Below, piece by piece: positions 236 to 59,100 of a stretch of DNA of 64,000 bases (position 1 is its first letter; every line of letters starts with the position of its first letter). The translations under genes and the position numbers were made by a program. Under the pieces are notes generated by a model, which was not told the DNA's origin, ran no database searches, and was given only the letters and a program-made list of their open reading frames with translations. Source of the stretch: Gordius albopunctatus (taxonomy: Eukaryota); NCBI GenBank assembly GCA_964276515.1, contig OZ193909.1, positions 15,686,001 to 15,750,000 on the forward strand. The letters run 5' to 3'.

Positions 236-3200
236 CTGTATGGAGGTAGGGCAAACAGTACTTTAAAATGATATATTAGTAATCTAATAAAATTAAACTT
301 TTTTCGTCATTTAGCGGAGGAAAGCGGACGTCCCCCCTGGCTACGCCCATGTTAAGCTCCACAGATTATAAAGGGCTCCAAAACAATAAAAAAGTTTATA
401 GGGGGAGGCATTTCGTAAAAAAGTAAAGGCTCTAAACATATTCACATCCTATTCTTTTTATTATTACCACTCACCCACCGCTAAAACGACACTGTTTTCA
501 CAAGCAACACTTAGTATTTAAAGCAAAAAATATTCCTCGCTAACAACGAAACTTTCCAACTTATGAAAGCTTTTTTAAATATTCAGACACCTTATTTGTA
601 ATTTTCCCAAAATGTCCATACCAATCAAAATGGTGTTTTGGCTAAATTACCTCCAGCATGTTGTTGATTGCCGAAGTGCACCAATGAGGGCGTCATAGGG
701 GCGTGGTCGGGCGGTCCTCCTGGATGATCCGGATGCCAATTCTGAGCGGGTGCGGATTGGGGGGCCTGACCCCCACCGAAATGTTGCTGCTGAGGGTTAG
801 AATGCTGATAGTGCTGACCGCCTCCCGCGTTAAAATGAGACGGAGCCGTGGGGTGGGGCTGTGAAGGATGAAATCCCCCATTACCCAAGGGCACGCCAAA
901 CTGTGGGGGTGGAGCAACGGCTGAGGGTGGAGGGCGGGCGGATCCAGAAAGGGGCGGGCCACGCATCATCAGCATGTTAGATGGAGGTGGGTGGGGTGCG
1001 GGCGGTGGAGCAAAGTAATCAGAAGAGACCTAAAAAGGTGAAAAATAGCGTAGATGCAACGCTAAATATTGACATCTAAACTCATTAAATTATTTTGGTA
1101 AGCTTGATTTAAAAATAAGTTTGACTGAGCCTATCAATAATATATAAAAGATTTTATACTCTTCCTCAAGTTATTAAGGCCACTGCTATCTTTGTACATA
1201 TAAAAATTTTGTAATTTATATGAAATGTTGTATTGGCAATTACGTTATTTGATATAATGAAACTGGTGTTAAACAATCCAATAAATTGCTCGATAAGGTT
1301 TTAAAAGATATGAGGGCCCAATAAAATTTTAAATAAATAAAGTATATGGTGTCCTTTATAATTAAGAGAGAGGGTTATATAAAATTATTTCAAATTGATA
1401 AGAAGAATAATAAATTTTTCTTTCAAATTTTGGCAATCTTAGGATATCGTCTATTTACACTTTTCCATATAATTTAGGGTTATGAACCGCTTTTTAATTA
1501 CCTATTTTTTAGTTCTAAAAACAAAATGTTAATTTTAGTAGTTCCTCGCTTTTAAATTCAGTGTATGTAAGCTAGTATTCCCATTAAATTTATGCAAAAT
1601 ACACTTTGTATTTTATAGGTAGGGAGAATTTTGAAGGGAATGCAAAAATATAAGAGGAGAGGATCTACATAGGAACGGTAAAGGCGAGAAGCCTAAAAAA
1701 TTCAACTAGGACACACTCACCAACGACCTTTTGTGGGTATATCTTGATAAAAACTAGGCAAATAGCGAGTTATCAAGAATTCACCCTCTGTTAAAATGTG
1801 TGTAACCGAAAAAAATTAGGTAAAATTTTAAAAGAAGCACACAACCACGTCAAACATGTTTTTCGTATATTTTACTTTTTGCTGCCTTATACCGTCTCTC
1901 GCTTAATTTGAAAATTTAATATTCATATATCTCCTAGCAAGGGCGTGGCGAGCATTCGAATTAAAGGGGGCACTAATAACTTGGGGGGGGGGGGTCAAAT
2001 GATCATTTTTAAAATTTTAGCCATAATTTAGAGGGTGGCAGCCGCCCCTCCCCTAGCTACGTCAATGTCTCCAAGTATAGTGAGGAGTGCTAAGTTTGTA
2101 AAAAGCCAAAAGTTATAGCAGTTATTGGAAAAAGAGACAAAAGCCGCTAGGGCCAGTCTATCTGGTAAGTGTTAAAATTCGGGACCAGCATCTAAAAACC
2201 CTACTTGAAACATATAAAACAAAACAAATACGTTCAATCGCGACAGTTTCCTTAATTTTTGGAAATCTTAATGCACAAATCATGTCAATCTTAAAACACA
2301 CGCATACACTCAAAAAACTCAAGAAAAGTGGAATTATAGCCAAAATGGCGCGGAGAAACACAGAAATTAATGCCCATTACCTTCCCCGGTTCATACCGCC
2401 CATGCTGAGCGGCTCCGTAGATGTTATTGGGATTGTTACTGTTATTGTTGGTGCCAGAGAGGGTGTGGGTATTGAAGAGGGAAGTGTGTAGCTCCAAGGA
2501 TTGTCTCTTCTTGTAATCTTGAGGTTTATGCTCGGACATCCTAAATAGCACGGCTGCCGCGTACGTCGCTACAATTGTTTGCGTTTACAAGGAAAACATT
2601 GAAATTTAATGAAATAAATTTTATAAAAAGGGATGGGGGCTTTGTTTGGTCAACCCTAGGTTCAACTAAGACCAACGGTAGATTCTGGTATGTTTATGTT
2701 GACTAAAACCAAAAGTCGATTTACAACAGTACAATTTTCACATAATTATATAAATACATATTTTGAGGTGACATATACAAAAATGAGCAAAAACTAAGGC
2801 TGGACCATAATTAACGACGCCGGTGAGGTCGAGTTTAAATAAACTATAGCACACCTCTTCTTTAATAAGTTATCTCTCAGTATCGCTATGATTTTTACGA
2901 TTCCCTAACAATTTTGGGCCTATGATGGATTCTGCTGACAACGACAAAAATACGTCATTAAGAGAACAACTACATACATAATTTCTCCTGCCACCTCTTG
3001 TCTCATTAAATTTTGGACAACTTAGAGAGCTACTGGGCGCGCTGCCAAAACCGATAAACATGCGACCCCTCCGTATAATTACACGCCAAGCCTTTCCCTT
3101 CGCCAGCAAGAGACATTCTGCCTGCAAAATACATTTTCCAACCTAAAATATTTTCTAAGTTTTCGAACGCTCACTTTATACGTGTCAACTCTTACGTCAG

Positions 3201-6200
3201 CGTCAATCCCTTTAAATTACTGAGCATTTGAATCAAAATTATTGAGCATTAAACTTACCAACATCTTCATTGGGAGAATGCAAAAGATCGGTTAGGGGTG
3301 TGGTGGCCCCTTCTTGTTTAATCAGTTCGACAACCTCCTTTTCAGTGGCCAATTCATAAAGCAGAGCCACCGTCGATCTTTGTAAGTCCTCGATGTCCGA
3401 ATACAAGAGCTAGGCAAAACAAAATCGATCGATCGATAAAACACCAATATTTTTACATTTCACCGAGATGTATATATAGTATTGCCGCGCGACAAAAAAA
3501 TAAATACCGCAAAAAATGGTTTATGAAATATTCCGCATAAGCGAATATGCGAAGGGGTGAATAAGATAGATTGATACTTGACAGCAGTGGTAGTAGTAGA
3601 TTCTTAATTCCTAGTGTTAAAGAGAAGGGAGGGAGACCTCAAGTTTGGGGTAAGATTGTCAATGTAAATAGCTAGTATTCCCATTAAATTTATACAAAAT
3701 ACACTTTGTATTTTATGGGTAGGGAGAATTTTGAAGGGAATGCAAAAATATAAGAGGAGAGGATCTACATAGGAACGGTAAAGGCGAAAAGCCTAAAAAC
3801 TAGACAAATAGCGAGTTATCAAGAATCCACCCTCTGTTAAAATGTGTGTAACCGAAAAAAATTAGGTAAAATTTTAAAAGAAGCACACAACCACGTCAAA
3901 CATGTTTTTCGTATATTTTACTTTTTGCTGCCTTATACCGTCTCTCGCTTAATTTGAAAATTTAATATTCATATATCTCCTAGCAAGGGCGTGGCGAGCA
4001 TTCGAATTAAAGGGGCCACTAATAACTTGGGGGGGGGGGGGGTCAAATGATCATTTTTAAAATTTTAGCCATAATTTAGAGGGTGGCAGCCGCCCCTCCC
4101 CTAGCTACGTCAATGTCTCCCCCTAGAGACAAAAGCCGCTAGGGCCAGTCTATCTAGTAAGTGTTAAAATTCGGCACCCGCATCTAAAAACCCTACTTGA
4201 AACATGTAAAACAAAACAAATACGTTCAATCGCGACAGTTTCCTTAATTTTTGGAAATCTTAATGCACAAATCATGTCAATCTTAAAACACACGCATACA
4301 CTCAAAAAACTCAAGAAAAGTGGAATTATAGCCAAAATGGCGCGGAGAAATACAGAAATTAATGCTCATTACCTTCCCCGGTTCATACAGCCCATGCTCA
4401 GCGGCTCCGTAGATGTTATTGGGATTGTTACTGTTATTGTTGGTGCCAGAGAGGGTGTGGGTATTGAAGAGGGAAGTGTGTAGCTCCATGGATTGTCTCT
4501 TATGCTCGGACATCCTAAATAGCAAGGCTGCCGCGTACGTCGCTACAAGTGTTTGCGTTTACAAGGAAAACATTGAAATTTAATGAAATAAATTTTGTAA
4601 AAGGGGATGGTGGCTTTGTTTGGTCAACCCTAGGTTCAACTAAGACCAACGGTAGATTCTGGTATGTTTATGTTGACTAAAACCAAAAGTCGATTAACAA
4701 CACTACAATTTTCACATAATTATATAAATACATATTTTGAGGTGACATATACAAAAATGAGCAAAAACTAAGGCTGGACCATAATTAACGACGCCGGTGA
4801 GGTCGAGTTTAAATAAACTATAGCACACCTCTTCTTTAATAAGTTATCTCTCAGTATCGCTATGATTTTTACGATTCCCTAACAATTTTGGGCCTATGAT
4901 GGATTCTGCTGACAACGACAAAAATACGTCATTAAGAGAACAACTACATACATAATTTCTCCTGCCACCTCTTGTCTCATTAAATTTTGGACAACTTAGA
5001 GAGCTCCTGGGCGCGCTGCCAAAACCGATAAACATGCGACCCATCCGTATAATTACACGCCAAGCCTTTCCCTTCGCTAGCAATAGACATTCTGCATGCA
5101 AAATACATTTTCCAACCTAAAAGATTTCCTAAGTTTTCGAAAGCTCACTTTATACGTGTCAACTCTTACGTCAGCGTCGATCCCTTTAAATTACTGAGCA
5201 TTTGAATAAAAATTATTGAGCATTAAACTTACCAACATCTTCGTTGGGAGAATGCAAAAGATCGGTTAGGGGTGTGGTGGCCCCTTCTTGTTTAATAAGT
5301 TCGACAAACTCCTTTTGAGCGGCCAATTCACAAAGCACACCTGCCGCCACTCTTTGTAAGTCCTCGATGTCCGAATACAAGAGCTAGGCAAAATAAAATC
5401 GATCGATCGATAAAGCAACAATACTTTTACATTTCACCGAAATGTATAACTTTATTGCCGCGCGACAAAAAAATAAATACCGCAAAAAATGGTATAAGAT
5501 AGATTGATACTTGACAGCAGTGGTAGTAGTAGAGTCTTAATTCCTAGTGTTAAAGACAAGGGAGGGAGACCTCAAGTTTGGGGTAAGATTTTCAATGTAA
5601 ATAGATAGGGATAAGTTAATTTTGTCTATAATTTAAAAAGTTGTTACGATTAAAAAAACTTGTGAATACATTTTTAACAATTTTATCTACGAATTAAATC
5701 CATTAAATAAAATTTTTACCGATAAATTTAAAAGTTGAAATACGCTAAAATCGCTGTTTTTGGCAACTTTGACAGCGAATATCTAAAAAAATTGACGTAT
5801 TGGGAAAAACTAAAAACATATTTGTGTTCACAGTGAAAAACTCTACAAGAACCTGCAAACAGTTTGCCGGTTAATTTTTCTTGTTGAACCGTGTAATCAG
5901 ATTAATTCGGCTAAAACCTATTCTTTTTTGCTTGTGATTCGAAAATAAAAACTGACATAACGTTTTTATTCTTATAAGAACTCATCTGCCATGGTGTTTT
6001 TTTATCGTAAAATTTTACCTAAGCAAGGAACAAAAAAATTTAAAAAATTTTTTAAATATAATCAGTTTACAAGAAAAGGCTGATTTTTTCAAGTCCGACT
6101 GCAATTTTCAACCCAGATCTTGGCTGCCAATTAACCAAGTACTTATAACTAGGCACGAGGCATACGTTAAAAGCGGCCTTAGCACACCAGTTCAGTTGGC

Positions 6201-9200
6201 CTTTATATTTAAAAGAGTGCGTTAGAGAAAATGTGATTAAAAGAAGAAATGACAGCTTGCGGCCTGAATCAAAATATTTTGAATTTTAAGTCATCATACC
6301 TATCTATACCCTTCGGATAATTGCGAGATCCTACAACTTAGTTTTTCAAATATGGTAAGCTTGCCATTAGATCAGGTTTGAAAAAGTTAGAGTTAAATCC
6401 AAAACTATCAACATAACACATTTATTTGCAAAAGACTATATACATCTTAACGACCAATCGTCTATAAACAGGTATGGGGTAGACAAAAACCAAACAAAAT
6501 TATAAGTCCAAATCAAGCAGCGCGGCCCGCTCCAGTTTAATTTATGCCAAAACGTAACTCGACAATTAGATTTAATAATTCGTCAAGCTGAAGAACACGA
6601 GTTTATACTGGATAATTTAGGTGCAAAATCAATAAATATCGATTCCTTCTCCATGTCAATATTTACTTATCGCAAATGAAGGCCCCCAAAACTTCAAATC
6701 TCATCTATGAACCATGATGCGTTTCAAACCCGTTTTTACAACAACCAAAATGTTTAAAAAAATGTCACAAAAATATAGCCACTGAAACTCTAACATGCAG
6801 GCTAGCGATAGATGCAAGTCGCTAAATACCGACACTTTCAAACGGGATGGGGGGGCGCGTGCGAAAGTGAGTATACCGTACCTGCACGAAGATGGGTATG
6901 ATGTTGAGTTCTCGTATTAAAGCCCGATTAAAGGCATCCCTAGCCAATACGTGCATCGCATCCACGGAAGCCTCCATAATCTCGTCCATGATGAGCGGGG
7001 AATTTCGCTGTTCTTTGCCCGGTTGCTTACACTGCTGTTGCCCTGCTTGGTTGGGCAAAGATTTCTGCATACATATTTATTTTCAAAAAACATAATTTTA
7101 ATTACCAGTCCTATCCTGTTTGTCTTGTCCGCGTTAGTTTACAACACAACTTTCAATATGTGTATATTTTATCGAGAGTATGAAAGATGTAAATTCAACA
7201 TACTACACGCGAGGTCATTGCTAAAGTAAGGTTACGTTTGGATCCGTATAATGTTTGTCTTATTGACAATTTGGAATTTTCCAAAAAAAAATTTTAATCA
7301 CCCAAAGTGAGGTTTATAAAGGATTTCAACATGGCGAAAAATCTGGCATTTAAATTAACTTCGCACGAATAACTAACAACCTAAAGCCGCGACAAATCGC
7401 TTGACAGAACTTTATGCGCTTTTCAAAAAGTGTAAATATATCAAATATGTTTGGATAATTCTCGAATTTCCTATTCAAAAACGCCTAATACGTGTCTATA
7501 ATTTACGGTTTTATGAAAACCGCGTAACATTCAAAATATATACGTCACGATTCGGTAATGTAGGAAAGACATCAAAGATGGCGTCGTCCACCCTTACTCA
7601 ATATTTTAAGTTAAGGGAAGTTTACCCTGGAATAATTTTGGTTGGCACGCATCGAAATCTGAGCCATCTTGGGCAGAGTCCCTTGTTCTCGCAGGGTTGG
7701 GTGATTCGAGGGGCAGCAAGCCAAATTTCTGATAACTCTGATAACAGCCTAAACACAGCCACGAGGCAAAGCACAGAAAATTAAGGATATACATCCCGGG
7801 GTTTTTATATCGACATCAATAATTTTTGAAATTACTTTTATGAATGGCCAAGAGCTGGGCGGGTTCAAAAGTTTCACCAAAATCGGGATCCCATTATGGA
7901 TTCTAACAGCATTTTGCGCGTTCTCAGATTCCGGGTGTCGCCTAGTTAAGTGTCTCAGGGCACACACCTAGAGTAATGTATTTCATAAAAATAACTTAAT
8001 AAATTACTGATCGCTTTGTAATATTTTTTACAAAGTTAAAAGTGAAAGTTTATAGTTATATATCTAATTATAATAAAAAATCCTACAATTATATAATAAT
8101 AATATGATATAAAAAACATTATATAAGTGATATCTGCTATGTCTTCATCTTGGTCTTTTAGAAGAGGCCAGGAATCCAAAAAAGATTTGAAATTAAATTT
8201 TGCGAATAAAATTCCTACCGATTGTTTGAGTAAAAATGCGGGGGAATATTTAAAGGGAGGGGATCGCTCGCCTATTTCTATGAATAAAGCCAAGGCCTGT
8301 ATTTCATGCGCTTGAGTTTTTGGGGAAAAAACATGAAAAGAGTGGCATTTTATTACATGTTATCACACTACAATATTTTTGGTGGATGTGATAGGCATTT
8401 GCAAGTAAGGGGACGGGGTCAATATAAAACGATAAAGGGGCTAATATGCAATTTACAGAAGTTTCGGTGATTTCTTCGAGATCGGGGAAAGGGTGGACCT
8501 CTTGTAGCAAGTCCTGCACGCCCCCGCAATCGAAAACGATGGTAGTAAAAAATTCTGAAATCATGAGAATCTAGGTCTTCTTGTATTAAATTATAAAATG
8601 AGATTTTTTAACAAGAGCCCCTTGCTCAAATGGAAAGGATTCATGTCATGCCATAACTTGGTGATTCTTACGAAGTTTAAATAATATTTTTACAATAACA
8701 GCAGGCATCAGTTTGATAAATAATTTAGCGCCTTTGTTAAAATCTAGAGCAATTGTAGGCAGGGGTTTGTCCCGAACACCTGAACCCGAACCGGGTAAAA
8801 CCCGATGTTTTACTGAAGCCGAACCCATTTTTTAGAATTATCACGTCTTATATCTTAAGAAATCTAAGCCATTGTGTGTATGCACCTCCATTTATCTACT
8901 TCAGAGCAAATACCCGAATCACTATTGATATCCATCTTTACAGGCTTTTATTAATCACATTAATTAGCTAAATCTTACTAAGTGCGGACAATAAAACAAG
9001 CGTTGTACGCTTTTATGCATTCAATGTTTTTATACACTTTAAGTCTGTAAGTAAGCCACACGCATATAGCAGACTTTGGATGCCCAAGGACCGCAACACC
9101 GCAGATCCAGGAGACATCTCTTTCGAGCTCCCAAGTTTAGAGAACATCGAGGAGGAAATAGACTTAGGCTTCTGGGAAAGCGAAAATATTAGCATAAGCG

Positions 9201-12200
9201 AAGGGGAAAACGAACCAAATCCCTAGACACGTGACCGTGCCACTATATAAACGCTTCCAAGGATCACACCGTCATTCGCTAATTTTTCTCACTCACACTA
9301 ATTGTTCCCACGTTTATACGCTTTCTGCCCCCTTTTACTTTTCGTTACATTTTTACCCTAAAATTTAAGTTCACCCTTTCTCAGTAAATGACAAAAGGGA
9401 GAAATGTAACCCAGGGAGAGCCACCAATAGCCAGTCCTCCGTTGAGCCCTGTTAGACCAGGGGTTCCCGGTGCGGGCCTAACGGAGCTGATTACACAACT
9501 CGTGGAATTTCAAAGGGAACAAACCAGAAACAACGCCGAAGCGGCGCGAGCAAATCAAAGGCAGATCGATGCCATGAGAGAGATGCTGGAGAACTCTCTC
9601 TCAGTGGTGGGCTCCTTAGCGAGACAGGAGCCCACCCCAACGCTGCCAGCACCGTTGCAAATGCCGTCAACGGTGCAAATCGTGCCAGCCCCAGAACAGC
9701 CTAAAACGCCGGCAGCCATTTGCGAGGACATCGCCAAGCATACTCAGGGGCTTAGTGAATTACTTACAGACCCGGACCTTAAAGTCCAGAAAAGGGACCG
9801 GCACGAGGCTAAGTATGCGATCCTCATGTCTCAAGTTTGCACACCATTATCCCCTCTGGAGGTCCTAACAGCGCACGACAAGCAATTAAAAACACTATGC
9901 CTAGCGATCAAATTCAATTGGGCTACAGCCATCCGGCACGATACCACTTGGTTATCAGATATGGGCTTCCAAAACGTGGAAGTAGCAGTTCCTAAATAGC
10001 CAAAGAAATCGTTTTTTCCGAGCGCTGGCAGGGGCCAAGGCAGCAAGCCGGGCCGACACTTCAAGAAGAACGCGGCCCCTGCCCCGCGTTCGTAAACTTC
10101 TGAAGCAAACGGTAAACAAGTGGGAGTACGGGCCTTCGGGCGTACCGACTCTCACTGGGGACGAAAGCCACAAGGCTCCTGACTGGTGGAGGAAGATCAA
10201 GGACTTCCTCAAGGAGACACGTCGTCAGCTTTTTTCCCCTGCACCGAACAACCATAACCATAACCAAAACCACCCCACCACCGCCAGAGGTAGAGGAACG
10301 CATCAACCCTACTGAAGAACCCACGGAAGGTGACGAGAGCAGCATAAAACGCTCTTTAAATGGGGGAAAACCAGCACTACCCAGAAACCCACGGGAAAGC
10401 TGGACATCAGAACGTCCCGACTCAAACCACACCCATTGATGTCGGAATTCACACTCAAAGTGGCGTTCGAAGTGTTCAAACCTCCACTGGACCTCCCCAA
10501 AATACGGCAGAATGGCGGCTTATTCAAGCCAGACAGATGGAGGCGCACATCAAAAGGGTCGCCAAGCTACTTTACGACTTTGAAAGAAGAGTCCGTTGTT
10601 TCCGAGACGCAAGCGCTCGCGGTCACGTCCTCCACCTTCTTCATAGCTAAGAGCAATGGGGATGCCCGAATAATCACCGATCTATCTGAAGCATCAAAGA
10701 ACTTCAGACATCTTCCGGTCAAACTGGCAACAATCCCATTGACGTCTAAATCTCTGGCAAAAGCAAACTACGCCGCAAAAATTGACCTCAAAGCGGCTTT
10801 TTCAGCATCCCGCTATATAACAACTACAAAAAATACTGCGGATTCAAATGGAGAGGGAAGCTGTTTCAATACAACGTCTTACCAATGGGAGCTTCCTTCA
10901 GTCCGTACGTATTACAAACCATTGTGGCAGACCTCGTAAAAGCCTCGGTCAAGCACTGCCACTACAACGTCTACTTAGACGATATCCTCATCTTCGCACA
11001 AGACGAGGACGACGTAGCAACCGATCTGGGAGAAATAGCAGAGATGGCCAAGGAATGGGGGCTAACGATCAATACGGCAAAATCCTCCATTATGCCTGAA
11101 AGGGAACTCAGCTACCTGGGGTTATTGCTCAACTTCGAAACACACACGATCAGCTGCTCGGTAGAAACGAAAGCAAGGCTTAATTACGCAGCCGACCTCC
11201 TCTACCTGTACCTGTCAACAAACGTCCCCCAGCTGACTACACCATGTTAGAAGCCTTGGGGGTAATGAATTATTTTTTCTACAATCTCACGGGAATGTCG
11301 AAGCTCCTCACGGCCTTCTACGCGGTGTCAACAGGGAAAGGCACTGCACACGACAGACCATTAGCACGAGGCAAGCTCGCTGGATGCCTAGCACTGCTCG
11401 AAACAACCATCCCAATACACGAGGACCATGACACAACAATCTATGCTGACGCATCCGATACACATATCGGAATATCATGGGAAAACATCAAGTTCTCGGT
11501 CTCGTTCGAACAAGCAGCAGACGTGATAGGCTTGGATTGGGTAAACACAAACCACATCACTGCAGCAGAAACATTAGCAGCTATTTACGCGTACCTGGTA
11601 GCCACCCAAAACGGGGCCCGATATCCAAAGGTGGTCACGGTCTCCACCACAGCCTACTACGTGCTTAGGAAGGGAGGGTCCAACTCCCCGGTGGTAGAAA
11701 AGATAATAGCCAGCTTCGTAGCAACACACAGCATCTCACACAAGGGCGTAGCCAGGATTTGCTAGAGGGGGGGGGGTTTAAAATTTTTGAAGCCATATTT
11801 TTTTTTGGAAGTAATTTTATTTTCGACATATATTATTGAAAGTAAAGTAAAAATACAACAAAAATAAATTATAATATAACAAAATATTTAAAAACTATAA
11901 ACAATTAATATCGACGTTTTTTAGATAAAAATGCATTAATAATATCTTCTGTTTTGGGGGTATATTGTCTATGTAGATTTAACAAGGTTAATCCAGTAAG
12001 CCTAAATTAAAAATTAGTAAAACCATTTAATTTACCTTTCTTGTCCCATTGTGTTCCTGAGGTAAGCTTTTAGTCTTTTTAAAGCTGAAAAAATCTCTCA
12101 TTAGAGCATGTTGTAACGGGGAGTGTGGCTAAAATATGGTATAATGTTTTTATATTTGGATGTAATTTTAATTTGGACGCATGATTGGTTAATGTTTCCA

Positions 12201-26287: not shown

Positions 26288-27050
26288 CCCTCTACTGCAT
26301 GAACTATGTTAGAATAATTTTTTTTTGTCTCGATACTATTGATAACCGCATGGCTCACTTTTTTAAAAAATTTTTTAAATATCCTAGAAGATACACGGTA
26401 TGTAGATTCAAATACACATTATGCAATTAAGGGTACAAATTTCCAGTAATTTTTATTATACTCTAACTATAAATATATATAATTTTATATGAATTACAAC
26501 AAATATTTAATGTTGGAACATTTTAATTTTCATTAAAATCTACAAAATAATTATTTTTAGGCGTAAAACATAAATATACGCCACATTTTAGGCAAGAAAC
26601 TTTCGTAACAAATATGCATCCTGGCAGTTTACATCTACCCTTTTTATCATTATATTTGGGCCAGTGAGCTGTGAGGTCTTTCCTAACCTCTACATTAGGT
26701 AAAGATTGGTCTGGTCCTTTTTTACATTTTTCCTGATAACCAGTCTCAACTGATTTTCGTTTGGGAATATTGTTTGTGGTGCATTTGCCATATTTGCAAA
26801 GGACTTCCGCCACCGAAATTTTTAAATTGTATAACCTTAATAGATCCTTTGCTTGTATTGATATACTATTATAGTCCCGTTTGTATTCCAACCAAGAATT
26901 TATAAGTAACATGTCGAATACATGAAATATAATTCGATGGTACCATTTTCTAGATTTGGAATGAATTCTATATAATAAAATTAAAGAATCCATAAGATCT
27001 ACACCTCCCATTGATTTATTATAAACTTTCACAATGTTTGGACCCTATAC
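26288..27050 (-). mobile_element. piggyBac transposon 3' fragment
   Basis: YNKSMGGVDLMD...KWYHRIIFHVFDMLLINSW plus a C-terminal Cys-rich domain (ORF 26523-27032). Terminus TTAA|CCCT at 26284-26291. Confidence 0.9.
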
Positions 27051-29003: not shown

Positions 29004-32000
29004 TATAGTATTTATTGATAACACATGTAAAATCACAACAACTATTATATATATACACTAGGAATACAATATCATCAATAACACTATATTACAATACTCC
29101 CCCATAAGATTAATATTCATCGTCGAATCTTTTTGGTGGTTGTCTACGTCGTTGGGGTCTCGGCACATTGTCTTGTTTAAATCCTGCAATTGGTTCCTCT
29201 TCCTCGGCCCCTATTGATTCCTTTAGGTTGTCTATGGCTTTCCGTAAGTGATCTGTGTGTTTACGCTTAATCCGTCCTTCGGCCCAAACATCGTAGGACC
29301 AATCATTCTTCTTACGTTCAATTATTCCCTCGTGCCAACCCTTTTCTTTTTCATTTTTTACCCATACTTTATCCCCTTCCTGAAAATTACGGTCGGAAAC
29401 CTTCCTATCATGATAGTACTTTTGTTTCCAAACATTGTCGATAGTCGTTTCCTTGATCGAACGTCGCAGTTGGTCAAAAGAAGATCGGATTCTTCTTTTA
29501 AACATTAATTCACAAGGAGCTACACTTGTAGTATTATGAGGTGTCAATCTGTAAGCCATGAGTACCTGAGCCAAAAGTTTATCATCGTCTTGATTATACC
29601 TAGCGGCTGCGTAAAACCGTGATTTTAGTGTCCGAATAAATCTTTCACACAATCCGTTAGATTTTGGGTGATATGGAGATGTCCGAATATGTCTAAAACC
29701 ATTAGCTTTTATAAATATTGCGAATTCCTCTCCCAAGAATTGACTACCGTTATCGCTTACTAAAACTCTTGGTAGTCCCAATCGAGCAAACCATTCGCGC
29801 AACGCCTTGATAATTCCGGTAGAGTGTAAGGAATTTATGATTTTTACTTCTGGCCATTTTGAATAACCATCAACTAAAACCAACCAATATTTGCCGTTTA
29901 TGGGTCCTGCCAAATCAATGTGGACGCGATCCATTGGTTCTTCTGTTGTAGGCCATTGATATAAGGGAGATTCTAACATATTAGATCGATTTTCTTGACA
30001 ACCTTTACATCTTTGGACAAAAATTCCAATGTCATCATTGATTTTAGGCCACCAACAATAAAATTTTGCTAAATCAATCATTCCAGATATTCCCGGGTGT
30101 CCGGTATGTAAATTTTCTAACACCACCATGTTCAACTTCCCTGGAACTATTAACCGATTTTGCCAATATATTAATTCGTTTTGAATAGATAACTCATCTT
30201 TCTTCGGATAAAATGATCTTCGAATGGTTGCATCGTTGATAGGTTTGCTCCAATTACAGCGAATCAAATCACTAACATCATTCAACCTTCTATCTTTCCT
30301 TGTTTCCTCCACTAACGTTTTTCTGGAAAACTTTAAATCTTCAATCATGTTTATATGGATGTCTTCATTACTCTCTGCAAAGGTAGGTAGTCGAGATAAT
30401 GTATCTGCGATTTGATTAGTCTTTCCAGAAATATACTCAATTTTAAAGTCATAAGCCATTAATTTAGTATTCCATCTTTGTAATCGTAAGTTGCAATTAT
30501 AATGGTGTCCCTCTCGACCAAAAATGTATTGTAACGGTCGATGATCTGTTTTTAATGTGAATGTTCTCCCATAAATGTATTGGTGAAATTTATTGACAGC
30601 GTAAATAATACCCAGAGCTTCCTTGTCAATAGTGGAATATCCCTTTTCTGCTTGACTTAAAACCCTTGATGTATAGGCAATAGGCCTTTCTTGTCCATCC
30701 GACTCCACGTGCATTAACACCGCTCCCAATCCTGCTTCACAAGCGTCCGTATACAGAACTAACGGCTTCCGTAACGAATATGGAACAACGGTATCTTCAC
30801 TAGATATTAAGTTTTTCAATTTGTCAAAACAATCTTCTTCCTCTTTCCCCCATTCCCATTTGGCCTCTTTTTTTAAAAGGTTGTGTAATGGTACACATTG
30901 TGGTTGTAACATAGGTATAAATTTGCCTAAATATGTTAATAGTCCTAAAAATCCTTTAAGTTCAGATTTATTTGTGGGTCTTTTACAATTCCTTAAAGCT
31001 AAAATTTTTTCCTCCGTAGGTTGAATACCTTTAGAACTAATCTTGTGGCCCAAATAAACAACCCAGTCTTGCAGATATTTTATTTTGTCTGGTGTTGTGG
31101 TAATTCCTACCTCTCCAAACCGTTTTAATACTTCTTTAATATTTGAAATATGTTGTTCATCATTAAGTCCCGTAATGATAATATCATCAATAAATACCGC
31201 TGTATTTGGAATTCCAGCTAACAGATTAGTGATATACCTTTGAAAAATCAATGGAGCCACCTTTATTCCGAATGGCAGCCTACGATAACGGAATAATCCT
31301 ACGTGTGTAGAAATGGTAAGTAGTTTTGCGCTTTGCTCAGACATTCTTAATTGTAAGAAAGCGTCTCGCAAATCGATACATGTGAATTTATCGCCCCCGA
31401 GGAGCTTGGATGTTACATCCTCAAAGGTAGGCAGGGTATCCCCAATATCGCATAGGTAATCATTTAACGTGGCCTTAAAGTCCCCGCATATTCTAATGGA
31501 TTTGTTTTTCTTAAATCGATTGACAGTAGGGGTACACCATGGAATTTCAGTGTTAAGTTCGACTTTTTCTATTACTTGCTCTTCCAAAAGTCTTTTAATC
31601 TCAGATTCGATGGCCTCCCTCATCGGAAAAGGTACCCTTCTTGGTGGCAAACTTATAGGCTTATAGGGGGTTTTTAAATGCAAATTTACCATAAAATTGT
31701 TAACTTCACCTAATTTCTCTGAAAACACTTTAGGAAACTGCTCGATCAAATTTTCTAATTTAAGCTGTCTAATTACAATGTTTTTAGGTAATTCAAATCC
31801 AAATTCTAAAATTTCTGGTAATCCCAATATTAAATCCCCTTCATTAACTACTAACAAAGGAATTTCTAACCATTTATTGTTAATTTGAGCTTTTGCTAAA
31901 CACTTGCCCAAAGTTTTGACCCTAAAGTTCCCATAACTCAATATACTTGGGCAATTCCTTAACTCAGGTTTACCAATTTCCATCCAAGTCTGCTTATCTA

Positions 32001-32900
32001 TGACAGTAGCCTGAGCTGCAGTGTCAAACTCGAAATTATAATTTTTATCATTTAATACCACTTTAACCAATGCTTTATTAGTTTTATACACCTTAACACA
32101 ATTAATATTATTATTATACTTTTTGAATTGATAATGATTATTATTTTTATTAAAATAACAAAATCTAGCTAAATGGCCTTTCTTTTTGCAATTAAAGCAT
32201 ACTAGGTCAGCATAGTTGTTTTTATTATTATCATGAACTTTTGTAATTTTATTAATTTCTTCATGTGTTATATCTCTATCTTTATCTACCACTTCATTTG
32301 AGGCTCTCTCAAAGCTAAGTGCCAATTCAAATACAGTTTTAAATTTTAACTTTTCATTTCCATCTTTACCATCAGGAAATCTTATTCTTATTTCATTTTC
32401 TAATCTACTATTATTTAACCCTAACAAAAACCCATCCCTTAACATCTCATCTTCTTCCTTATACTCACACAAGATAACCAAGGACTTTAATTTTTGTGAG
32501 AAATCTTCAACTGACTCATTTTTCCTCCTAGCCCTTAAGAATTGTAATCTATAAAAAAAAATCGAGTTTTTACTTCCAAATAACAAAAGTAATTCTTTTT
32601 TTAAATCTTCATAAGTGCTATCCTCTATTTTTTTTAGGGTAAATTTTATATTTTAACCTTTTCAAATTCGGAAGTCCAAGGAATGTGATGAGATATTTTT
32701 TTTTGTTCGCAAGCGTAACTCCTTTGATATCCATGGCACTTTCTAGTACCATTATCCAGTCCTCTATTTCCATTAGGTCGGAGAATTCTTCTATTTTGAC
32801 CTGCGCCATTTATAGTATTTATTGATAACACATGTAAAATCACAACAACTATTATATATATACACTAGGAATACAATATCATCAATAACACTATATTACA
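29004..32900 (-). mobile_element. Full-length Ty3/Gypsy (Mag-like) LTR retrotransposon, 3897 bp
   Basis: Identical 90-bp LTRs (29004-29093, 32811-32900), 5-bp TSD ATTAT, PBS TGGCGCAG, PPT gggggagt, and gag-pol. Confidence 0.97.
29110..32809 (-). CDS. Gag-Pol polyprotein (CCHC knuckle, protease, RT, RNase H, integrase)
   Basis: CFNCKKKGHLARFC; FDTAA; FIDDIII; TDAC...DKE...TDH; H-H-C-C and D,D35E integrase. One extra A in an A8 run near 32630 separates ORF 32618-32809 from the 1158-aa ORF. Confidence 0.95.
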
Positions 32901-33256: not shown

Positions 33257-35868
33257 CGGGCCTTCTGCCCTCGTGGGAAGGGGAGGGGAGAAGGGTAGGG
33301 GGGACGACTCATCTATACTCCGTATAAACGTAGCATATTTGCTATGCAATTTATGGACGTTATATGCAAAATGTTTATACAAATTTTCCATCTAATTAAA
33401 AAATATGAGCGAGAAAGGTGGGAAGATGCGAAAATGCCTATAGAGGGATATTAAATGCAAAATGATTATTTAATTATTTATACAAATTTTCCATTTAATT
33501 AAAAAAAATTGCCCTCGCCGGGATTCGAACCTACATTAAATAGAGGCATAAGCCTTTGTAGGGGCACAGGGACCCATATCAGTAGAAGCATAGACACTTG
33601 TAAGGGAGAGCATAGGGCAATTTATCAATGTTAACCTATTCAAAAACAAAAAATTTCGATTTATTTGGCCAATGGTCATTTTTTTAATTGGTCAGTAGCC
33701 AGCGGAAGGTCAAAAAGTCATATTATCCATGGTATTAACAAGAACATAATATTAATTTAATTAAAAAAAATAAAAATTTATCGTCTCTCCGGGTTTCGAT
33801 CCTGAACCTCCAAGTCAGTAAGCCGTTGTTATAACCACTCTTACCATGCTGGCATTAAAATAAAATGAGTTTTTTATATTATTTATATAGATAATGAAAT
33901 AATAAAGATGTGTTTTATTTATGTTTATTATATAATAAAATGGAACAATGATAGAAAATCAATATATTATAGATAATTTAACAAATATCAACAAGAACAA
34001 AATATTAATTTAATTTAAAAATAGGCACTTGTAGGGGAGGGCATAGGGTAATTATCAACGTTGACCTATTCAAAAACGAAAATAATTATTTTGGGAGGAG
34101 CATTTTGAAATTTTAGCCTTTACTTAAGCAATATGGTCAATGTTCATTTTTTTATTGGTCAGTACCAAGAGAAGGTCTCGAAAAAAAAATTCGAATCACA
34201 ATTTGGCTAATGGTCATTTTTTTTCCATTGATCCGTACCAAAAGACTGTTTCTAAATACATACGAGTCAAAAAAACGAAAAAAAATTTTTAATCACAATT
34301 TGGCAAATGGTCATTTTTTCATTGGTCAGTGTCAAGAGATGGTCTATAAATACATACGAGTCAAAAAAAACGAAAAAAACTTTCGATCTACACTTTGGCC
34401 AATGGTCATTTTTTTCCATTGGTCAGTACCAACAGATACTCTATAAGTCAGTGTTAGCCAAAAAAACAAAAAAAATTTTTTTGATGCTCACTTTGGCCAA
34501 TGTTCATTTTTTTGATTGGTCAGTAGCCAGCGGACGGCCCTATTATCAATGGTATTAACAGGAACAATCATAATAGTCAAAAAAACCGGAAAAAAAAATT
34601 TCGATTCACACTTTGGCCAATGGTCATTTTTTTCCAGTGGTCAGTAGCCAGCGGACGGCCAAAAAGTCACGTTATCAATGGTATGAAAAATAACTATATA
34701 ATAATTTAAAAAAAAAAAAAAATTTTTTTTAAATTTTTTGGCCTCTCCGGGATTCGAACCACAGATCTGGATAGGCATAATGTAGGGGGGGGCACAGGGA
34801 CACATATCAGTAGAGGCATAGGCTCTGTTAGGGGAGGGCATAGGGTAATTGTCAATGTTAGCCAAAAAAAACGAAAAAAAAATTCGATTCACACTTTGGC
34901 CAATGGTCATTTTTTTCCATTGGTCAGTAGCCAGCGGACGGCCAAAAAGCTACATTATCAATAGTATTAACAGGAACAATCATGTAATCGAAAAAAACGA
35001 GAAAAAAAATTTCGTTGCACACTTTGGCCAATTGTCATTTTTTCCCATTGGTCAATACCAACAGATGGTCTATAAAGCAATGTTAGCCAAAAAAAACGAA
35101 AGAAGAAATTTTTTATTCACACTTTGGTCAATGGTCATTTTTTCCATTGGTCAGCAGCCGGCAGACGGCCAAAAAGTCATATTATCAATGGTACGAACAA
35201 TTAATTTTAAAAAAAATTTTAAAAAATTTTAAAAGTTTTTGGCCTCTCCGGGATTCGAATCCACCAGAAAGCCGGTGTAAATACATTGGAGGGTAACGGA
35301 CGGACAACCAAAAACGAGCCCATAAATTGCATAGCAATTAAAAATGGGGGGGGGGGGGGGGTCAGTAGAAGAGAGGCATACTCCTTTGTAGGAGGGCGGG
35401 GCACAGGGACCCATATCAGGAGAGGCATAGGCCCTTCTAGGGGAGGGCGTCTATAAATCAATGTTAGTCAAAAATAAACGAAAAAAAAATTTGCTTCACA
35501 TTTTGGCCAATGGTCATTTTTTTGCCATTGGTCAGTAGCCAGCGGACGGGCAAAAGCTATATTATCAATGGTACCAACAATAACTATATATTAATTTAAA
35601 GAAAAAAATATAAAAAAATTTCACTTTGGCCAATGGTCATTTTTTTCCATTGGTCAGTAGTCAGCGGACTGCCAATAAGCCATATTTTCAATGGTAGTAA
35701 CAAGAACAATATATTAATTAAAAAAAATAAAATTTGGCAGATTCGAACCCACAAACTAGTTAAATTATAATACGAACAAAAAATAAACAACGTGACATTC
35801 GGTGCGTGACACGAACAGCGTGACATAAACAAATGGAAAGTGAGCCCATAAATTGCATAGCAATTAAT
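33257..35868 (-). mobile_element. HINE/DINE-1-like element with internally amplified tandem repeats
   Basis: Both ends are the reverse complement of 23033-23375. The interior holds over 2 kb of degenerate ~110-130 bp units plus units containing ccgggattcgaacc. Confidence 0.65.
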
Positions 35869-37771: not shown

Positions 37772-40700
37772 TGTAGCTTTCACAATTGTGACACCTAGTT
37801 TCTTAATAGAAAAATAATATACCGCGTAAAGTATTATAAACATCCCTACACTCCTCCCCTCCTCTTCAACTGATCCACATGTCGCCAAACTTCAACGCCT
37901 TTTTCCATTGCCACCCTTAGCCGGTACCCCTCTTCTACGGCTATAATAACCCCCTTCACTCAATTATTAGGCCCCTGATACATCCGCATCCAAACCATGT
38001 CCCCCAATTTAAAACGTGATGGCCTTCCTTCCCTCTTCCTCCCCTCTTCAGGTATCATTTGATCTAGTCGCAAGCGACCCGTACGCCCCAAAAATTTAAA
38101 TGATGGTGAACTCCCATCTTTGCCGATCGCGTTGTGATACATCAATTTCATGAGCCATTGTTTACTCCCTCCACTTTTTTCTTTTAGTAACCAACCCTTA
38201 ACCACCCCTACCATACGTTCGGCTTGGCCATTGGAACTAGGGTGATACGGCACCGTTACGATATGTTCCACCCCATGACTTCTGCAAAATTCCCCAAATG
38301 GTCGACTGGTAAAAGCAGGCCCTCCATACTTAGCTATTAATCCCTTCAATACCCTTATTACTATTCGCGTAGAACTGCCATTTACCCTCTCATATTCGAC
38401 CCATTTCGTGCACGCATCTACAACAATAAAGTAGACCTTCCCTAGGCATTCAAAAATGTCTACATGTATCCTGTCCCATGGATGATACGCTATGACCCAA
38501 CAGGTACCTTTTATTTTTGGAGGCATAGCCGCAATTCTATTACATGCCTCACAATTTTTTCATCTTTACAATTCCTTGATGTCCGAGATGGAGCTCTCGT
38601 AGCACTTCTTGACAAAGACCCTTAGGGATTACTAACCGAAAACCTTTAGTTACCGCCCCTTCCACTAAATTCAATTGTTTTTTAACCCTGTGATATTCGA
38701 TAAGCGCGAGTGGCCATTCTGCATGTCCCTGAAGGCATTCCCGTAATTTTTTGATTTCGACATCCTCTGTTGATGCATCTTTGATATCATTCCATGAGAT
38801 GGGTCTCCCTTCGGATATATGCAATACGCACGGAGTATCGTCTTGATTATATATTCCCTCTACTGAATTGTCAATTTCATTTGATACAAGATCCATAGTT
38901 TTACTTTCCCCATACATGCGGGATAAGGTGTCCGCTAGATAGTTGTGTTTTCCCTTGCGATACGCTATGTCCATATCAAAAGGCTCCGACCACCACCAAC
39001 CATCTTTGAAGTCGCGATGATAACATCAGGTCGTGATTGTCTTTCCGAAATAGCGAGACAAAGGGCTTGTGAACGGTGTACAGGGTAAAGTATTTACCTA
39101 CAATATATTCTCGACATTTAACTAAGCCATACACCACAGCCAACGCTTCCTTTTCGATTACGGAGTACCTTAGTTCGGGATCCCGGAATTTGCGATATAA
39201 CTTGTAGCAATGCTCTCCCGACCGCCTCTTGAGACGCATCTACTACGATATGTATTTCCTTGTCTGGGTTAAAGCAAATTAATACTGGAGCTTTCACGAC
39301 GCACTCTTTTAGACTTTGAAATATGGCTTCTGCCTCTTCGCCCCACATAAAGATTGTATTAATTTTTATTAGATCATATAATGTCCTTGCTCGAGCTGCA
39401 AACCGGGGAATATATTTATGGTAGTAGTTTATTAATCCAAGAAAAGATTGCAATTGTTTTTTAGACTTGGGTGCCCTAATATCCCTTAACGCTTTTAACT
39501 TATTTTCCAGAGGACTTATCGTTCCATTTTCAATAATATGTCCTAGATATGATATTTTGTTTGCTCTAAATATACATTTTTCTTTGGACACTCTCAACCC
39601 ATTGTTTTCAATTATTCTTAAAACCCCCATTAACCGGAAATTATGTTCGGCTTCACTTCGACCCGCTATTAATAGATCGTCCATATAGTAGAAAACGCCT
39701 TCTAAGCCTTTAAATAAGGAATTCATAGCCATTTTAAAAATAGGAGCCGATATGCTCAAACCAAAAGACAACCTAAGAAAAGTGAAGAGACCTAAATGGG
39801 TGTTAATGGTTAAACTTAGACTCATTTCTTCCGACACTTTTAATTGCATGCGAAATCAATTTTGGAGAACACCTTGCACCCACTCAGTTTAACCAATATC
39901 TCTTCCAATCTTGGCAACGGGAATCGGACCAGTTCAATACTAGGGTTCAAGGTGATTCGGAAATCAGCACAGAGCCTCAATTTTCCCTCCGCCTTCCTAA
40001 CTGGGACCAATGGGGTTGCCCAATAACTAAATACTACAGGCTTGGTTATTCCCTCCTTTACCCATTTTTTTAGTTCCTCTTCGATCTCCGATCTCCACTC
40101 TTAGGGCACTCTCCGGGCCGGACAAAATTTAGGTTTTACACCTTCCTTAAACTTCATGGTAGCCTCAAAGCGTTTTAGACATCCTAATTCCCTCTTAAAC
40201 ATAAGCGGAAATTTGTCCAATATGTCTTGAGCTTGTTCCTCAACCTCCTTTTTAGAAATCACCTCCACCTTAATAAAATTACGATATTCTCCAGGTATAC
40301 CTTTAATGATTTTGAGCCACTCTAATTCAAAACTCTGAATCCAGTCCCACCCGAAAATATTACTTGTCCCTGCCTCCGACACATACAATATTAAATTTTT
40401 ACTAATGTTGTTTATAGTTACCCGGGCCTCACATTGCCCTACCAACCGCACTTTCTCATTATTGAAAATTTTAATTTACTCGGAAAATAATCATTTTTGC
40501 TTATGATCGTTATAGAAGAACTTGTATCAAAAATAAAGGTTACGGGGGCATTATTTAATTGTATTTCAAGGGTAGGGATTTTACCTAAAATTACATTGAC
40601 AACGTTTAATTCTAGTTCACGGTAAGGATAATTTTTTTAAATACTCTTTTTATCATAATTTAAGAATTTTTCTTTCCATTTATTTCTACCCGCCTTTTCT

Positions 40701-48100: not shown

Positions 48101-48215
48101 ACCTCCGATTATGGGCACGACAATGCCATTACTGTCAGGTTAGCAAGGTACATAAACATATTATATACACACCAGGTACATTCACCAAACCGGATGCCCG
48201 ATTTACCCATGTCCA
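45110..48215 (+). mobile_element. Degenerate, 3'-truncated Ty3/Gypsy element
   Basis: LTR end CA at 45242 and PBS TGGTGACCCC at 45247. Gag (PRIWFLQIES), protease (FLVDTGAELSVIP), RT ([21 protein letters not shown]), RNase H (TDA, SRELLA, TDHKPL), and integrase HHCC, then truncated. Confidence 0.93.
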
Positions 48216-48621
48216 AAAAGTTCAATTAGGGAGGGGCGAAACAAAAAAAAATTATTAATTTGTAAGGGTTTTTTTACATAGGAAAAAATTTTTTTCGTCA
48301 TTCAGAGGGGGGGGGAGGGGAAGGGTGAGTTATTGATAAAATAAATGTAGAAGCAATGCAAAATATTTAAATTAAAGGCATACACTTAATTAAATTTATA
48401 TTAAAATATGTCGTAATTAGATGGTAAGATAGGGCAAAAAAATTATATTTTTACAGAGAAAGGGTGGGCGCCACTGGCGCACAACAGATGTATTTTATTT
48501 AATATCTAATCTAATAAATGAACAATCAAAAAAATTATTCCCAGTGTTAGCGCCGTGCTATAGGAGTAGCGCATTTAAGTGCTATCGGCTATAGCTCATA
48601 GCACCTCAAACCTCCCATCTC

Positions 48622-54598: not shown

Positions 54599-54769
54599 AA
54601 GGGTCAACCATACTTAGGTAAACCCTGCAAAAAATAAAATATTTACAAGAACTTTTTTAATGTCAAATATATTCCATACGTATTAATTTAAACTTAATAC
54701 CTTAAATGTAAATCATGAAAATTAAAATACACAATAATTTTGGTTTTTCCGCATCACTAATTCCACTCA

Positions 54770-56177: not shown

Positions 56178-59100
56178 ATGAATTGTATAAATAATTTGAA
56201 TTTCCAAAATCAATCCATGAAGCAAGCATCATATATGGATATTGATAAAGGTCTTCCTATGCAAATTAGAAAAGAGCAAACCTTACAATGGCAGCAAAGT
56301 CATTATCATGGAGATTCTGGAATTCAGACTAAAATGAATACAAGGGTATATATTTTCAAGTTTTTTGCTCCATGTTCTAAGTTTATTTTATTTATGTTCC
56401 TTAACTTTTAATGTATCTTTATTTTTTTATTAGGCCCCTTCTATTTCTGGCCTCACTCATATGGATGATGGCATACAACATGATCATGTTCAACAACCCT
56501 ATAATAATTATGGAATGAATATGGGTGGGAATATTGGGCAAAACTTTGATTGGGGACAAGGTAAATTTTTCTAAGCCCTATTTTTAGAAAAAAATTTATA
56601 TTTGTAGGACATTTTTAAGTTAATTACTTTATAAAAATTGACTTGCTTTAAAATCTATATTGAGCCAATCAAAATAAAATAATGATTAAACTTCAACAGA
56701 GATTAAGACTTTATAATTTGAGACATCTGATTTAAAATAGGACTATGGTTGGTGTGTTAATTTTTTCCATCCTAATAGTGTTTTAAAATTACAAATTGGA
56801 TTCATTTTTAAATTTATTGTTTAATCACATAAATATATGATATTTTAGATATAAATCATGTTTTGAATCAAAATCGTTGTCAATGCATAAGAGCAGCCAT
56901 GTTTCAAGAAACTATGGATGAAGGGGTTGAAATAACATCAACACAATCTGATATGGAAGAACCTACGGCTGTTAAAAGACCTTCTGAGCCTAGCCAGATA
57001 TTGAAACATGCAGTGGGCAATTTGAAAAATTATCTAGTAAATAAACTTGACTCTTTTAAAATTTTAATTTTGTCACTGAAAATTATAACTATTTTAAAGT
57101 AATACTAAAAACCATTTTTAGTATCTTTTATAGAATGAAGTTAAAGTTTTCATATAATGCTTAATTTGCAATGTTAATCAGGGGTTTGTCCTGAAAGGTT
57201 TTTAGTTGGTGTGACATAACAAATTGAGATAATTTGCATACCCTGCCCTCATATGGATGGATTCTATTCAGCTGTCTTTAAAATTTAGGTCCCGCTGCTA
57301 TTTAATCCAGTAAAGTATTTATAAATTTAAAGGTTGTATTTTGTAGCAATTTAACAAAATCTACCTTTTTTTAATTTTTTATAGTTTATTTTAAAAGAGT
57401 ATTATTATTTACTATGTTAAAATGGTATAATCACAAATATCCATGTAAATTGGTAAAATATCTGGCAGTATCTAACTAATATTGCTATTAACCTAATACC
57501 AATAATGTATGCATAGCTTTAAGAGTTTGTGCAAATAATATTAAACAATCAAAAATAAAGATGCTTAATCTCAGAGTATTCTTTATTAGTCTTAATCAAT
57601 CAAAGAAGTCTCTTTATGCTATATGCGTGTGGCTTACTTACAGACTTAAAGTGTATAAAAACATTGAATGTATAAAAGCGCACAACGATCTATAATTAAC
57701 AGCTTTCTACTAAGCTTACAATTTTTAAATCTTACATTTTCGGTTTACAAACAAAGTGTTATTGTAGTTATCTCCCCAAAATGTGTGTAACGAATCAGAG
57801 AAAAACGTATTATTCCATTTAAAATGAAATTACAAGGAAAAGGACATAATTGAACTAGTTCATCACAAATATATTATTTAAAATAAATTTATAAGCCGAG
57901 TTTATTGTTTGTATATGCATCAACAATTTGACGTGCATTGTCTTCGCTGTGTTAATCATGCAGGCATACAGTACCCGCGCATTTTTGATTTTAAAAACAC
58001 AAAAAAACTTGCTTGTTTTATTGTCAGCACTTAGTAAGATTTAGTTAATTAATGTAATTTATAAAAGCCTGTAAAGATGGATATCAATAGTGATTCGGGT
58101 ATTTGCTCTGAAGTAGATAAATGGAGGTGCATACACACAATGGCTTAGATTTCTTAGATATAAGACATGATAATTCTAAAAAATGGGTTCGGGTTCTATA
58201 AAACATCGGGTTTTACCCGGTTCGGGACAAACCCTTGCCTACAATTGTTTAGATTTCTAACAAAGACACTAAATTATTTATCAAACTGATGATTGCTGTT
58301 ATTGTAAAAATATTATTTAAACTTCGTAAGAATCACCAAGTTATAGCATTACATGAATCCTTTCCATTTGAGCAAGGGGCTTGTGTTAAAAAATCTCATT
58401 TTATAATTTAATACAAGAAGACCTAGATTCTAATGATTTCAGAATTATTTACTACCATCGTTTTCAATTGCGGGGGCGTGCAGGCCCGATCGCGAAGAAA
58501 TCACCGAAACCGCTGTTTATCGTTTTATATTGACCCCGTCCCCTTACTTGCAAATGCCTATCACATCCACCAAAAATATTGTAGTGTAATAACATGTAAT
58601 AAAATGCCACTCTTTTCATGTTTTTTCCCCAAAAACTCAAGCGCATGAAATACAGGCCTTGGCTTTATTCATAGAAATAGGCGAGCGATCCCCTCCCTTT
58701 AAATATTCCCCCGCATTTTTACTCAAACAATCGGTAGGAAATTTATTCGCAAAATTTAATTTCAAATCTTTTTTAGATTCCTGGCCTCTTCTAAAAGACC
58801 AAGATGAAGACATAGCAGATATCACTTATATAATGTTTTTTATATCATATTATTATTATATAATTGTAGGATTTTTTATTATAATTAGATATATAACTAT
58901 AAACTTTCATTTTTAACTTTGTAAAAAATATTACAAAGCGATCAGTAATTTATTAAGTTATTTTTATTAAATACATTTCTCTAGGTGTGTGCCCTGAGAC
59001 ACTTAACTACCCGACACCCGGAATCTGAGAAGGCGCAAAATGCTGTTAGAATCCATAATGGGATCCCGATTTTGGTGAAACATTTGAACCCGCCCAGCTC

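Follow-up and report, generated by a model that had tools for sequence, protein, structure and literature searches.

A circularly permuted 2.7-kb RT-RNase H retroelement in a horsehair worm genome and its likely place beside the hepadnaviruses

Results

Two copies of a compact retroelement

The window, a 64-kb stretch of Gordius albopunctatus DNA, is AT-rich (35% GC), repeat-rich eukaryotic DNA in which two copies of one retroelement form islands of 50-51% GC. Copy 1 comprises 2,714 bp in two parts, 9072-11740 and 13375-13419, the hAT-like insertion between them being excluded. The features of both copies and of the flanking DNA are:

7832..9071, resuming at 13420-13784, no strand assigned: host repeat left of copy 1, matching 59120-57617 on the minus strand
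9072..9226, plus strand: left end of copy 1, with the last pol codons (end of the RNase H motif and acidic tail) and the pol stop, upstream of ORF1
9246..9251, plus strand: TATAAA, the sole one in copy 1; predicted promoter and possibly also polyadenylation signal
9252..9387, plus strand: pyrimidine-rich leader
9388..10095, plus strand: ORF1, with predicted coiled coil, helical bundle and K/R-rich tail; a stop at 9997-9999 breaks the frame
9986..10439, plus strand: interval with two overlapping open frames (9986-10315 and 10116-10439), the second stopping on TGATG over the pol ATG
10334..11740, resuming at 13375, plus strand: pol (RT and RNase H), with frame changes near 10802 and 11230-11237
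11741..13366, minus strand: hAT-like DNA transposon, a later insertion into pol, with terminal inverted repeats and an 8-bp target duplication
13375..13419, plus strand: right end of copy 1, where pol picks up again and stops within the RNase H end motif
18754..19331, plus strand: copy 2 ORF1, probable ATG near 18754, frame change near 18820
19332..20350, plus strand: copy 2 pol (second half of RT, RNase H, acidic tail), with a frame change near 20010 and a stop at 20144-20146
20377..20650, plus strand: copy 2 TATAAA (20377-20382) and pyrimidine-rich leader, downstream of pol; right end approximate
57590..57616, minus strand: empty site in the second host-repeat copy, keeping the 27 bases missing at the copy 1 insertion

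Compared with copy 1, copy 2 has lost about 1 kb internally, and this deletion joins its ORF1 in frame with the second half of RT. No empty site for copy 2 was found within the window, and a 13-nt inverted pair flanking it was dismissed as an AT-rich chance match. Two adjacent stable hairpins lie behind an AATAAA at 20703..20777 on the plus strand (z -6.3, 0/200 shuffles folding as well), one arm being complementary at 13 of 14 positions to a segment of the pol tail of copy 2 (20286-20299); copy 1 yielded no equivalent, and the hairpins may act in cis for copy 2 or have nothing to do with it.

The hAT-like element, whose target duplication occupies 11733-11740 and 13367-13374, gave a weak Dimer_Tnp_hAT match (E 0.017). 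Loose contig ends at 11741 were seen in 16 and 21 contigs of two public runs, other contigs skipping the element, and contig depth over it was very high in both runs, with many insertion flanks. Elsewhere the window holds a Gypsy element at 29113-32652 (minus strand) whose gag-protease-RT-RNase H-integrase frame runs unbroken for 1,180 aa, two further, frameshifted Gypsy-type elements at 37963-40475 (minus) and 45268-48258 (plus), and a fragment at 26526-27044 (minus) with a DDE_Tnp_1_7 transposase match (E 2e-8), which we take to be piggyBac-like. An irregular tandem family with units of about 95-130 bp forms clusters at 33500-35730, 51680-52680 and 21340-21750, one of them inverted, and kilobase-long non-coding repeats of 2-5 copies at 88-97% identity, mostly inverted, relate 1570-9071 to 54743-64000 and also include 14661-17141.

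Coding capacity of the element

ORF1 of the two copies shares 33% identity, with pN (0.48) below pS (0.74), and pol shares 46-59% amino acid identity, with pN 0.25-0.37 below pS 0.52-0.77. Purifying selection between the two copies is thus shown for both genes, third positions being saturated, indicating that the copies diverged as working genes. From its position and basic tail ORF1 is predicted to encode a gag/core-like structural protein. It gave no Pfam match, homologue or fold match, and all matches of an Atlas search stayed under 0.9. Its structure model is helical and of low confidence (pLDDT 54), and fold searches returned generic helical bundles, the best being a designed protein (Z 8.6, rmsd 2.6 over 78 residues), with the hepadnaviral core unlisted. 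The interval at 9986-10439, which has neither a Pfam nor a terminal-protein match, may represent a small ORF2, an extension of ORF1 or a decayed N-terminal part of pol.

Pol of copy 1 is spread over three frames. Its ATG lies at 10439, and the preceding 14 codons also match a Gordionus relative; of the 28,180 14-mers of the window, among which the segment itself is counted, 1 reaches the score. Pfam RVT_1 matches the central pol frame (E 7e-22), a PDB sequence search gave only weak RT matches and an Atlas search only unnamed eukaryotic RT clusters; no protease, integrase or methyltransferase was found in pol of copy 1. A sequence-only reading of this DNA had assigned 10600..11740 to a pol closer in style to hepadnaviruses, HEART and Ngaro than to LTR retrotransposons, quoting nine motif strings. 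Eight occur verbatim: FFIAK at 10637, a 12-letter string at 10664, a 13-letter string at 10879, YLDD at 10972, GLTINTAKS at 11059, YADAS at 11442, HITAAE at 11553 and, in copy 2, IPTSENPADYPSR at 20147. The letters of the ninth, DL...SIPL (10784-10815), are present but have no single-frame reading, with a frame change near 10802. The interval itself is indeed part of pol; the element is larger, however, and its permutation was missed.

Copy 1 is circularly permuted

The host repeat that flanks copy 1 recurs on the minus strand (57223-59120), and comparison with the empty site there sets the junctions of copy 1 at 9071/9072 on the left and 13419/13420 on the right. At this insertion, the only one with junctions defined on both sides, 27 host bases are missing relative to the empty site and no target duplication is present. 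The order within copy 1 is pol tail, TATAAA (9246), leader, ORF1 (9388), a 340-base interval (possible ORF2) and pol; the right end falls inside the RNase H end motif and the left end begins with pol's last codons. At the protein level 9072-9226 matches the pol tail of copy 2 with a score of 56, equalled by 1/2000 shuffles. The corresponding DNA match is weak (25/1000 shuffles reach its score), so that the permutation rests on the protein-level match together with the junctions. In its inserted form copy 1 is circularly permuted, resembling a DNA circle that was cut open. Each copy carries a single tail-TATA-leader block, on opposite sides in the two, and TATAAA occurs once per copy, 19 (copy 1) and 26 (copy 2) bases past the pol stop; the plus strand of copy 1 has no AATAAA. 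The tail of copy 2 did not match that of the Gordionus protein P0002 (740/2000 shuffles reach the score).

Contigs of both public runs join 13419 back to 9072 across 23 bases, indicating that the two ends of copy 1 adjoin in another copy; the evidence consists of contigs from a single study, possibly the window's own source. That the family is multicopy is shown by sequence variants in as many as 21 contigs, by internal deletions, by one strand switch or inversion and by the rearranged joints; contig depths in the two runs are not copy numbers. None of the 12 loose ends listed (494 more exist) lies inside the retroelement besides the hAT edge at 11741, a result compatible with fixed ends.

Domains and repeats sought in the window

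A tyrosine recombinase was found in 0/145 stop-to-stop window frames of at least 72 aa, a result that applies to these two copies only. Integrase and protease matches within the window were confined to the separate Gypsy elements, and no methyltransferase follows RNase H: in both copies, as in P0002, a short acidic tail closes pol. Among 1,451 window frames the best match to a terminal-protein profile had E 0.17 and the best to a core profile (19 rows) E 0.45, bearing out the earlier statement that no hepadnaviral terminal-protein domain is recognisable; both profiles matched 6/6 hepadnavirus control loci. The terminal-protein profile was built from 7 hepadnaviruses (controls E<1e-51) without PnNV rows, and a very remote terminal protein in the decayed 9986-10439 could therefore escape it. 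Compared with the terminal protein, the ORF1 profile gave a probability of 0.1%.

In the search for inverted terminal repeats or an internal complementary region, no inverted pair exceeded 20 nt (at 75-80%) in either copy; in that for split direct repeats of the A1-ORFs-B1A2B2 type, no direct repeat exceeded 24 nt (at 75-79%). A circle derived from a split-repeat element would also be free of repeats, so their absence is compatible with Ngaro/PAT descent. Around the copy 1 TATA there is no exact 11-12-nt repeat pair of the DR1/DR2 kind, no Rfam family reached its gathering score, and the leader shows no significant fold (z 0.35 and -0.73). As TGG is absent from the leaders of both copies, there is no canonical tRNA primer site, and the final 45 bases of copy 1 contain no purine run of at least 10. 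Of the LTR-retrotransposon hallmarks (integrase, protease, two LTRs, target duplication, primer site) none was found at copy 1, and the window contains no tandem copy of the element.

Relatives and phylogenetic placement

The nearest relatives, from a search that listed 120 matches among 1.84 billion representatives, are uncharacterised proteins of the horsehair worm Gordionus sp., two of which stand out (E 2e-24 and 4e-23). A profile search gave at least seven further Gordionus rows among the 120 best of 697 matches, the remaining rows among these reaching at most 130 bits and being mostly DIRS-like in look. XP_065317776 (P0001), XP_065315139 (P0002) and XP_065315196 (P0121) belong to the same family (100/99). 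The Gordionus proteins, annotated only as uncharacterised, have 31-40% identity to the window frames and share the pol start region and RT-RNase H, several fragments also having the acidic tail. A structure model of P0001 was unusable (pLDDT 34), and P0003 was rejected as a spurious repeat match. No related loci were found in viral or metagenome contigs, a word-indexed search among longer proteins with copy 2 pol gave no match, and a wider motif scan returned only 18 hepadnaviruses, all already in the set. Seven unnamed ENA/Logan sequences (P0190, P0221, P0211, P0215, P0238, P0199 and P0076) have RT-RNase H on the hepadnavirus side and no terminal-protein match, and may represent additional HEART-like lineages. 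P0190 scores above the Pfam threshold for DNA_pol_viral_C (E 6e-6); P0199, which lies on a contig of 3,760 bp, is longer at its N-terminus by about 290 residues.

Trees were computed with 10 hepadnaviruses, 23 DIRS-like rows (labelled from motifs without genomic context), 16 Gypsy rows, one Ngaro-like row labelled by eye and unnamed rows, published HEART, nackednavirus, PnNV, PAT or VIPER sequences not being part of the set. The window copies were entered with X at frame breaks, and P0006, a mis-assembled gene model, was dropped, a badnavirus-like locus being substituted in one tree set. A careful tree of 42 of 69 rows (400 columns, mixture model) recovered the family with 100/99, the family plus hepadnaviruses plus five unnamed rows with 97/89, and the DIRS side with 97/90. 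Six quick trees agree, with values of 91 for 68 rows, 90 for RT alone, 93 for RNase H alone, 95 for both, 96 without hepadnaviruses (family with unnamed rows) and 96 without those unnamed rows. All seven trees thus place the family on the hepadnavirus side and outside the sampled DIRS-like and Gypsy rows. In the careful tree it lies outside the hepadnavirus clade, more distant from it than the unnamed P0190 and P0199. Branches are long, and AU tests did not reject grouping with the DIRS side (p 0.262), the Ngaro-like row (p 0.079) or Gypsy (p 0.090). Profile scores of copy 1 were 154-165 bits for DIRS, 105 for Gypsy, 75 for the unnamed group and 58 for hepadnaviruses.

Motif counts, from patterns chosen after the family had been seen and thus descriptive within our own samples, favour hepadnaviruses and, in a comparison by eye, the Ixodes HEART rows. 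PMG...SP occurs in 4/5 family rows, 9/10 hepadnaviruses, 0/23 DIRS-like and 0/16 Gypsy rows; in the same order, RxxxD[FLM]S occurs in 4/5, 10/10, 2/23 and 0/16, and NPADxxSR in 3/5, 10/10, 1/23 and 0/16. The pattern P-x-F-x-L-x-x-(I/L)-P before the first catalytic Asp motif is present in 4/4 family rows and the unnamed P0076, and in 0/21 DIRS-like, 0/16 Gypsy and 0/10 hepadnavirus rows. The RNase H motifs DAS and H-I-x-x-x-E are not diagnostic, being present in DIRS-like rows too.

The proposed likeness of pol to hepadnaviruses is therefore supported in part: all seven trees agree with it, but the AU tests leave DIRS, Ngaro-like and Gypsy affinities standing and the profile scores are higher for DIRS. 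A supported nesting inside a DIRS or Ngaro clade, named beforehand as the outcome that would speak against the proposal, was not obtained. Its weakest part was the 'Ngaro style', since the element has neither split repeats nor a recombinase and the Ngaro-like row branches on the opposite side of the tree and is not sister to the family. We consider it likely that the family belongs on the HEART/hepadnavirus branch, HEART itself having been compared by eye only.

Discussion

Comparison with known systems

HEART retroelements were reportedly introduced by Gong and Han in 2018. They are RT elements of invertebrate genomes placed beside Blubervirales; the Ixodes rows given in PMC12691608 share P-x-F-x-L-x-x-(I/L)-P with the family by eye, but have (Y/H)(I/L)DN and LPFG where the family keeps YLDD and LPMG. 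The way in which HEART elements move is described as unresolved (PMC12440569), whereas at the copy 1 locus a whole unit with its junctions is visible.

The 2,714-bp unit lies within the nackednavirus genome range of 2.7-3.1 kb (PMC11551314). With nackedna- and proto-nackednaviruses (PMC11551314, PMC12691608) the element has in common a unit of about 3 kb, a structural ORF with short ORFs and P, no envelope, a TATA near the end of P with a short spacer to the RNA end, and the RT and RNase H motifs. Terminal protein, core homology and DR1/DR2 are features of these viruses, as is epsilon in most of them, but none of the four was found here. The viruses are reported as exogenous (same sources), whereas the present family is multicopy and chromosomal. 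The permuted 2,714-bp unit with abutting ends would fit a circular unit-length genome of about 3 kb such as Blubervirales have. The element would work like an endogenised pararetrovirus and, having no terminal protein, stands outside Blubervirales as defined.

A proposed replication cycle

We propose that a DNA circle serves as template, on which RNA polymerase II would start about 30 bases behind TATAAA and travel one round, yielding a genome-length RNA with a short terminal redundancy; on the second pass TATAAA may act as poly(A) signal. HBV uses TATAAA as its poly(A) signal. The ORF1 protein would package the RNA through its basic tail, and pol could be made from the same RNA by re-initiation at TGATG or by frameshifting. 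RT-RNase H would then copy the RNA, the terminal redundancy permitting closure into a circle; for RTPV, a redundancy of about 33 nt behind the TATA is given in PMC12691608. Priming is the weakest step: neither a hepadnaviral terminal protein nor a canonical tRNA site was found, and we speculate that it occurs by self-priming or from host RNA, as proposed for DIRS-type RTs. The chromosomal copies would be accidents of double-strand break repair, in which circles opened at varying points were captured and later decayed.

Several observations point to this circle-plus-repair reading: the permutation, the empty site, the ends joined across 23 bases, the block on opposite sides in the two copies and the lack of long repeats; the lack of any recombinase, integrase, terminal-protein or core match together with the tree placement; and a unit size in the nackednavirus range, the internal deletions and inversion, and the end-joining integration modelled for endogenous hepadnaviruses (PMC2946954). 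Against it we count that a single insertion has both junctions, the ends of copy 2 not being fixed; the AU tests and the profile scores that favour DIRS; the likeness, by eye, of the pol N-terminus to the pre-RT segment of DIRS; a possible loss of a recombinase gene; the origin of both runs in one study; and the fold searches with ORF1, which gave no capsid fold. Taken jointly, a 2.7-kb HEART-like RT-RNase H retroelement that replicates as a DNA circle, enters chromosomes by end joining and belongs to the HEART/hepadnavirus branch has in our estimate a probability of roughly 0.55.

Alternative explanations

The DIRS-favouring scores would also be expected of a divergent element of DIRS order (Ngaro/PAT/VIPER-like) whose circular intermediate was inserted by repair, its recombinase being lost or borrowed in trans. 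With DIRS1-like, Ngaro and PAT elements the family has in common a gag-like ORF followed by RT-RNase H, the lack of protease and integrase, a similar pre-RT segment (by eye the pol N-terminus seems to resemble that of DIRS), insertion without target duplication and its best profile scores, and a recombinase gene between ORF1 and pol could have been lost from copy 1, copy 2 being deleted there. It differs from them in that recombinase and methyltransferase are absent, that neither inverted terminal nor split direct repeats exist and that the unit is opened inside pol, whereas a recombinase inserts an element at the junction of its own ends. Its unit is half the size of DIRS1-like elements (about 5-6 kb; PMC3266345), and TATAAA lies within 26 bases of the pol stop in both copies, where Ngaro has its recombinase ORF (PMC8547959). 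Lacking recombinase and repeats, the element is outside DIRS1-like and Ngaro as these two sources define them, and with seven of seven trees placing the family outside the DIRS-like rows we regard such an origin as unlikely, if the best surviving of the alternatives.

The tail-TATA-leader block before ORF1 resembles U3-R-U5, and a Gypsy affinity is not rejected by the AU test (p 0.090); the block could accordingly be one of two long LTR-like direct repeats, the other having been lost from each copy by deletion or by excision as a one-repeat circle. The 13419-to-9072 joint, which shows continuity of pol and not a free circle, would suit this as well. Under such a history the deletion in copy 1 must have stopped 23 bases short of the second repeat, and copy 2 must have lost the other one. 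The element also has neither integrase nor protease, shows no target duplication and has no TGG primer site and no run of at least 10 purines near its right end; we think this history improbable. Equally hard to favour is a permuted unit drawn from head-to-tail tandem copies, by recombination or unit-length capture, with the circle a by-product and not the replicating form: permuted units do arise from tandem arrays, and the variant contigs and rearranged joints speak for a multicopy family, but the window has no tandem copy and an element without integration enzyme would still have to be explained.

Implications

The replicating-circle reading can be carried further, tentatively, to an undescribed invertebrate pararetrovirus or episomal retroelement family, of which the copies here would be chromosomal fossils, with a 2.7-kb circular, capsid-packaged genome that has RT-RNase H and is devoid of terminal protein, integrase and recombinase, a missing stage between DIRS-like elements and the protein-primed Blubervirales. 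We found no account of the family or its architecture in the literature that was searched, to which most subscription papers, the 2018 HEART paper and Repbase/Dfam did not belong; that paper may already describe some of these features. Invertebrate HEART retroelements have been put forward as the ancestors of hepatitis B-type viruses (PMC12691608), while HEART mobilisation, as noted above, is described as unresolved. A locus with both junctions and an empty site offers a testable answer, namely a circle without integration enzyme that is captured by repair. On the missing-stage reading, if true, a circular, non-integrating lifestyle preceded protein priming. If the circle-plus-repair answer holds, the steps would be ordered as loss of the recombinase, circular replication and later gain of the terminal protein, and the lineage would extend to a family present in horsehair worms.
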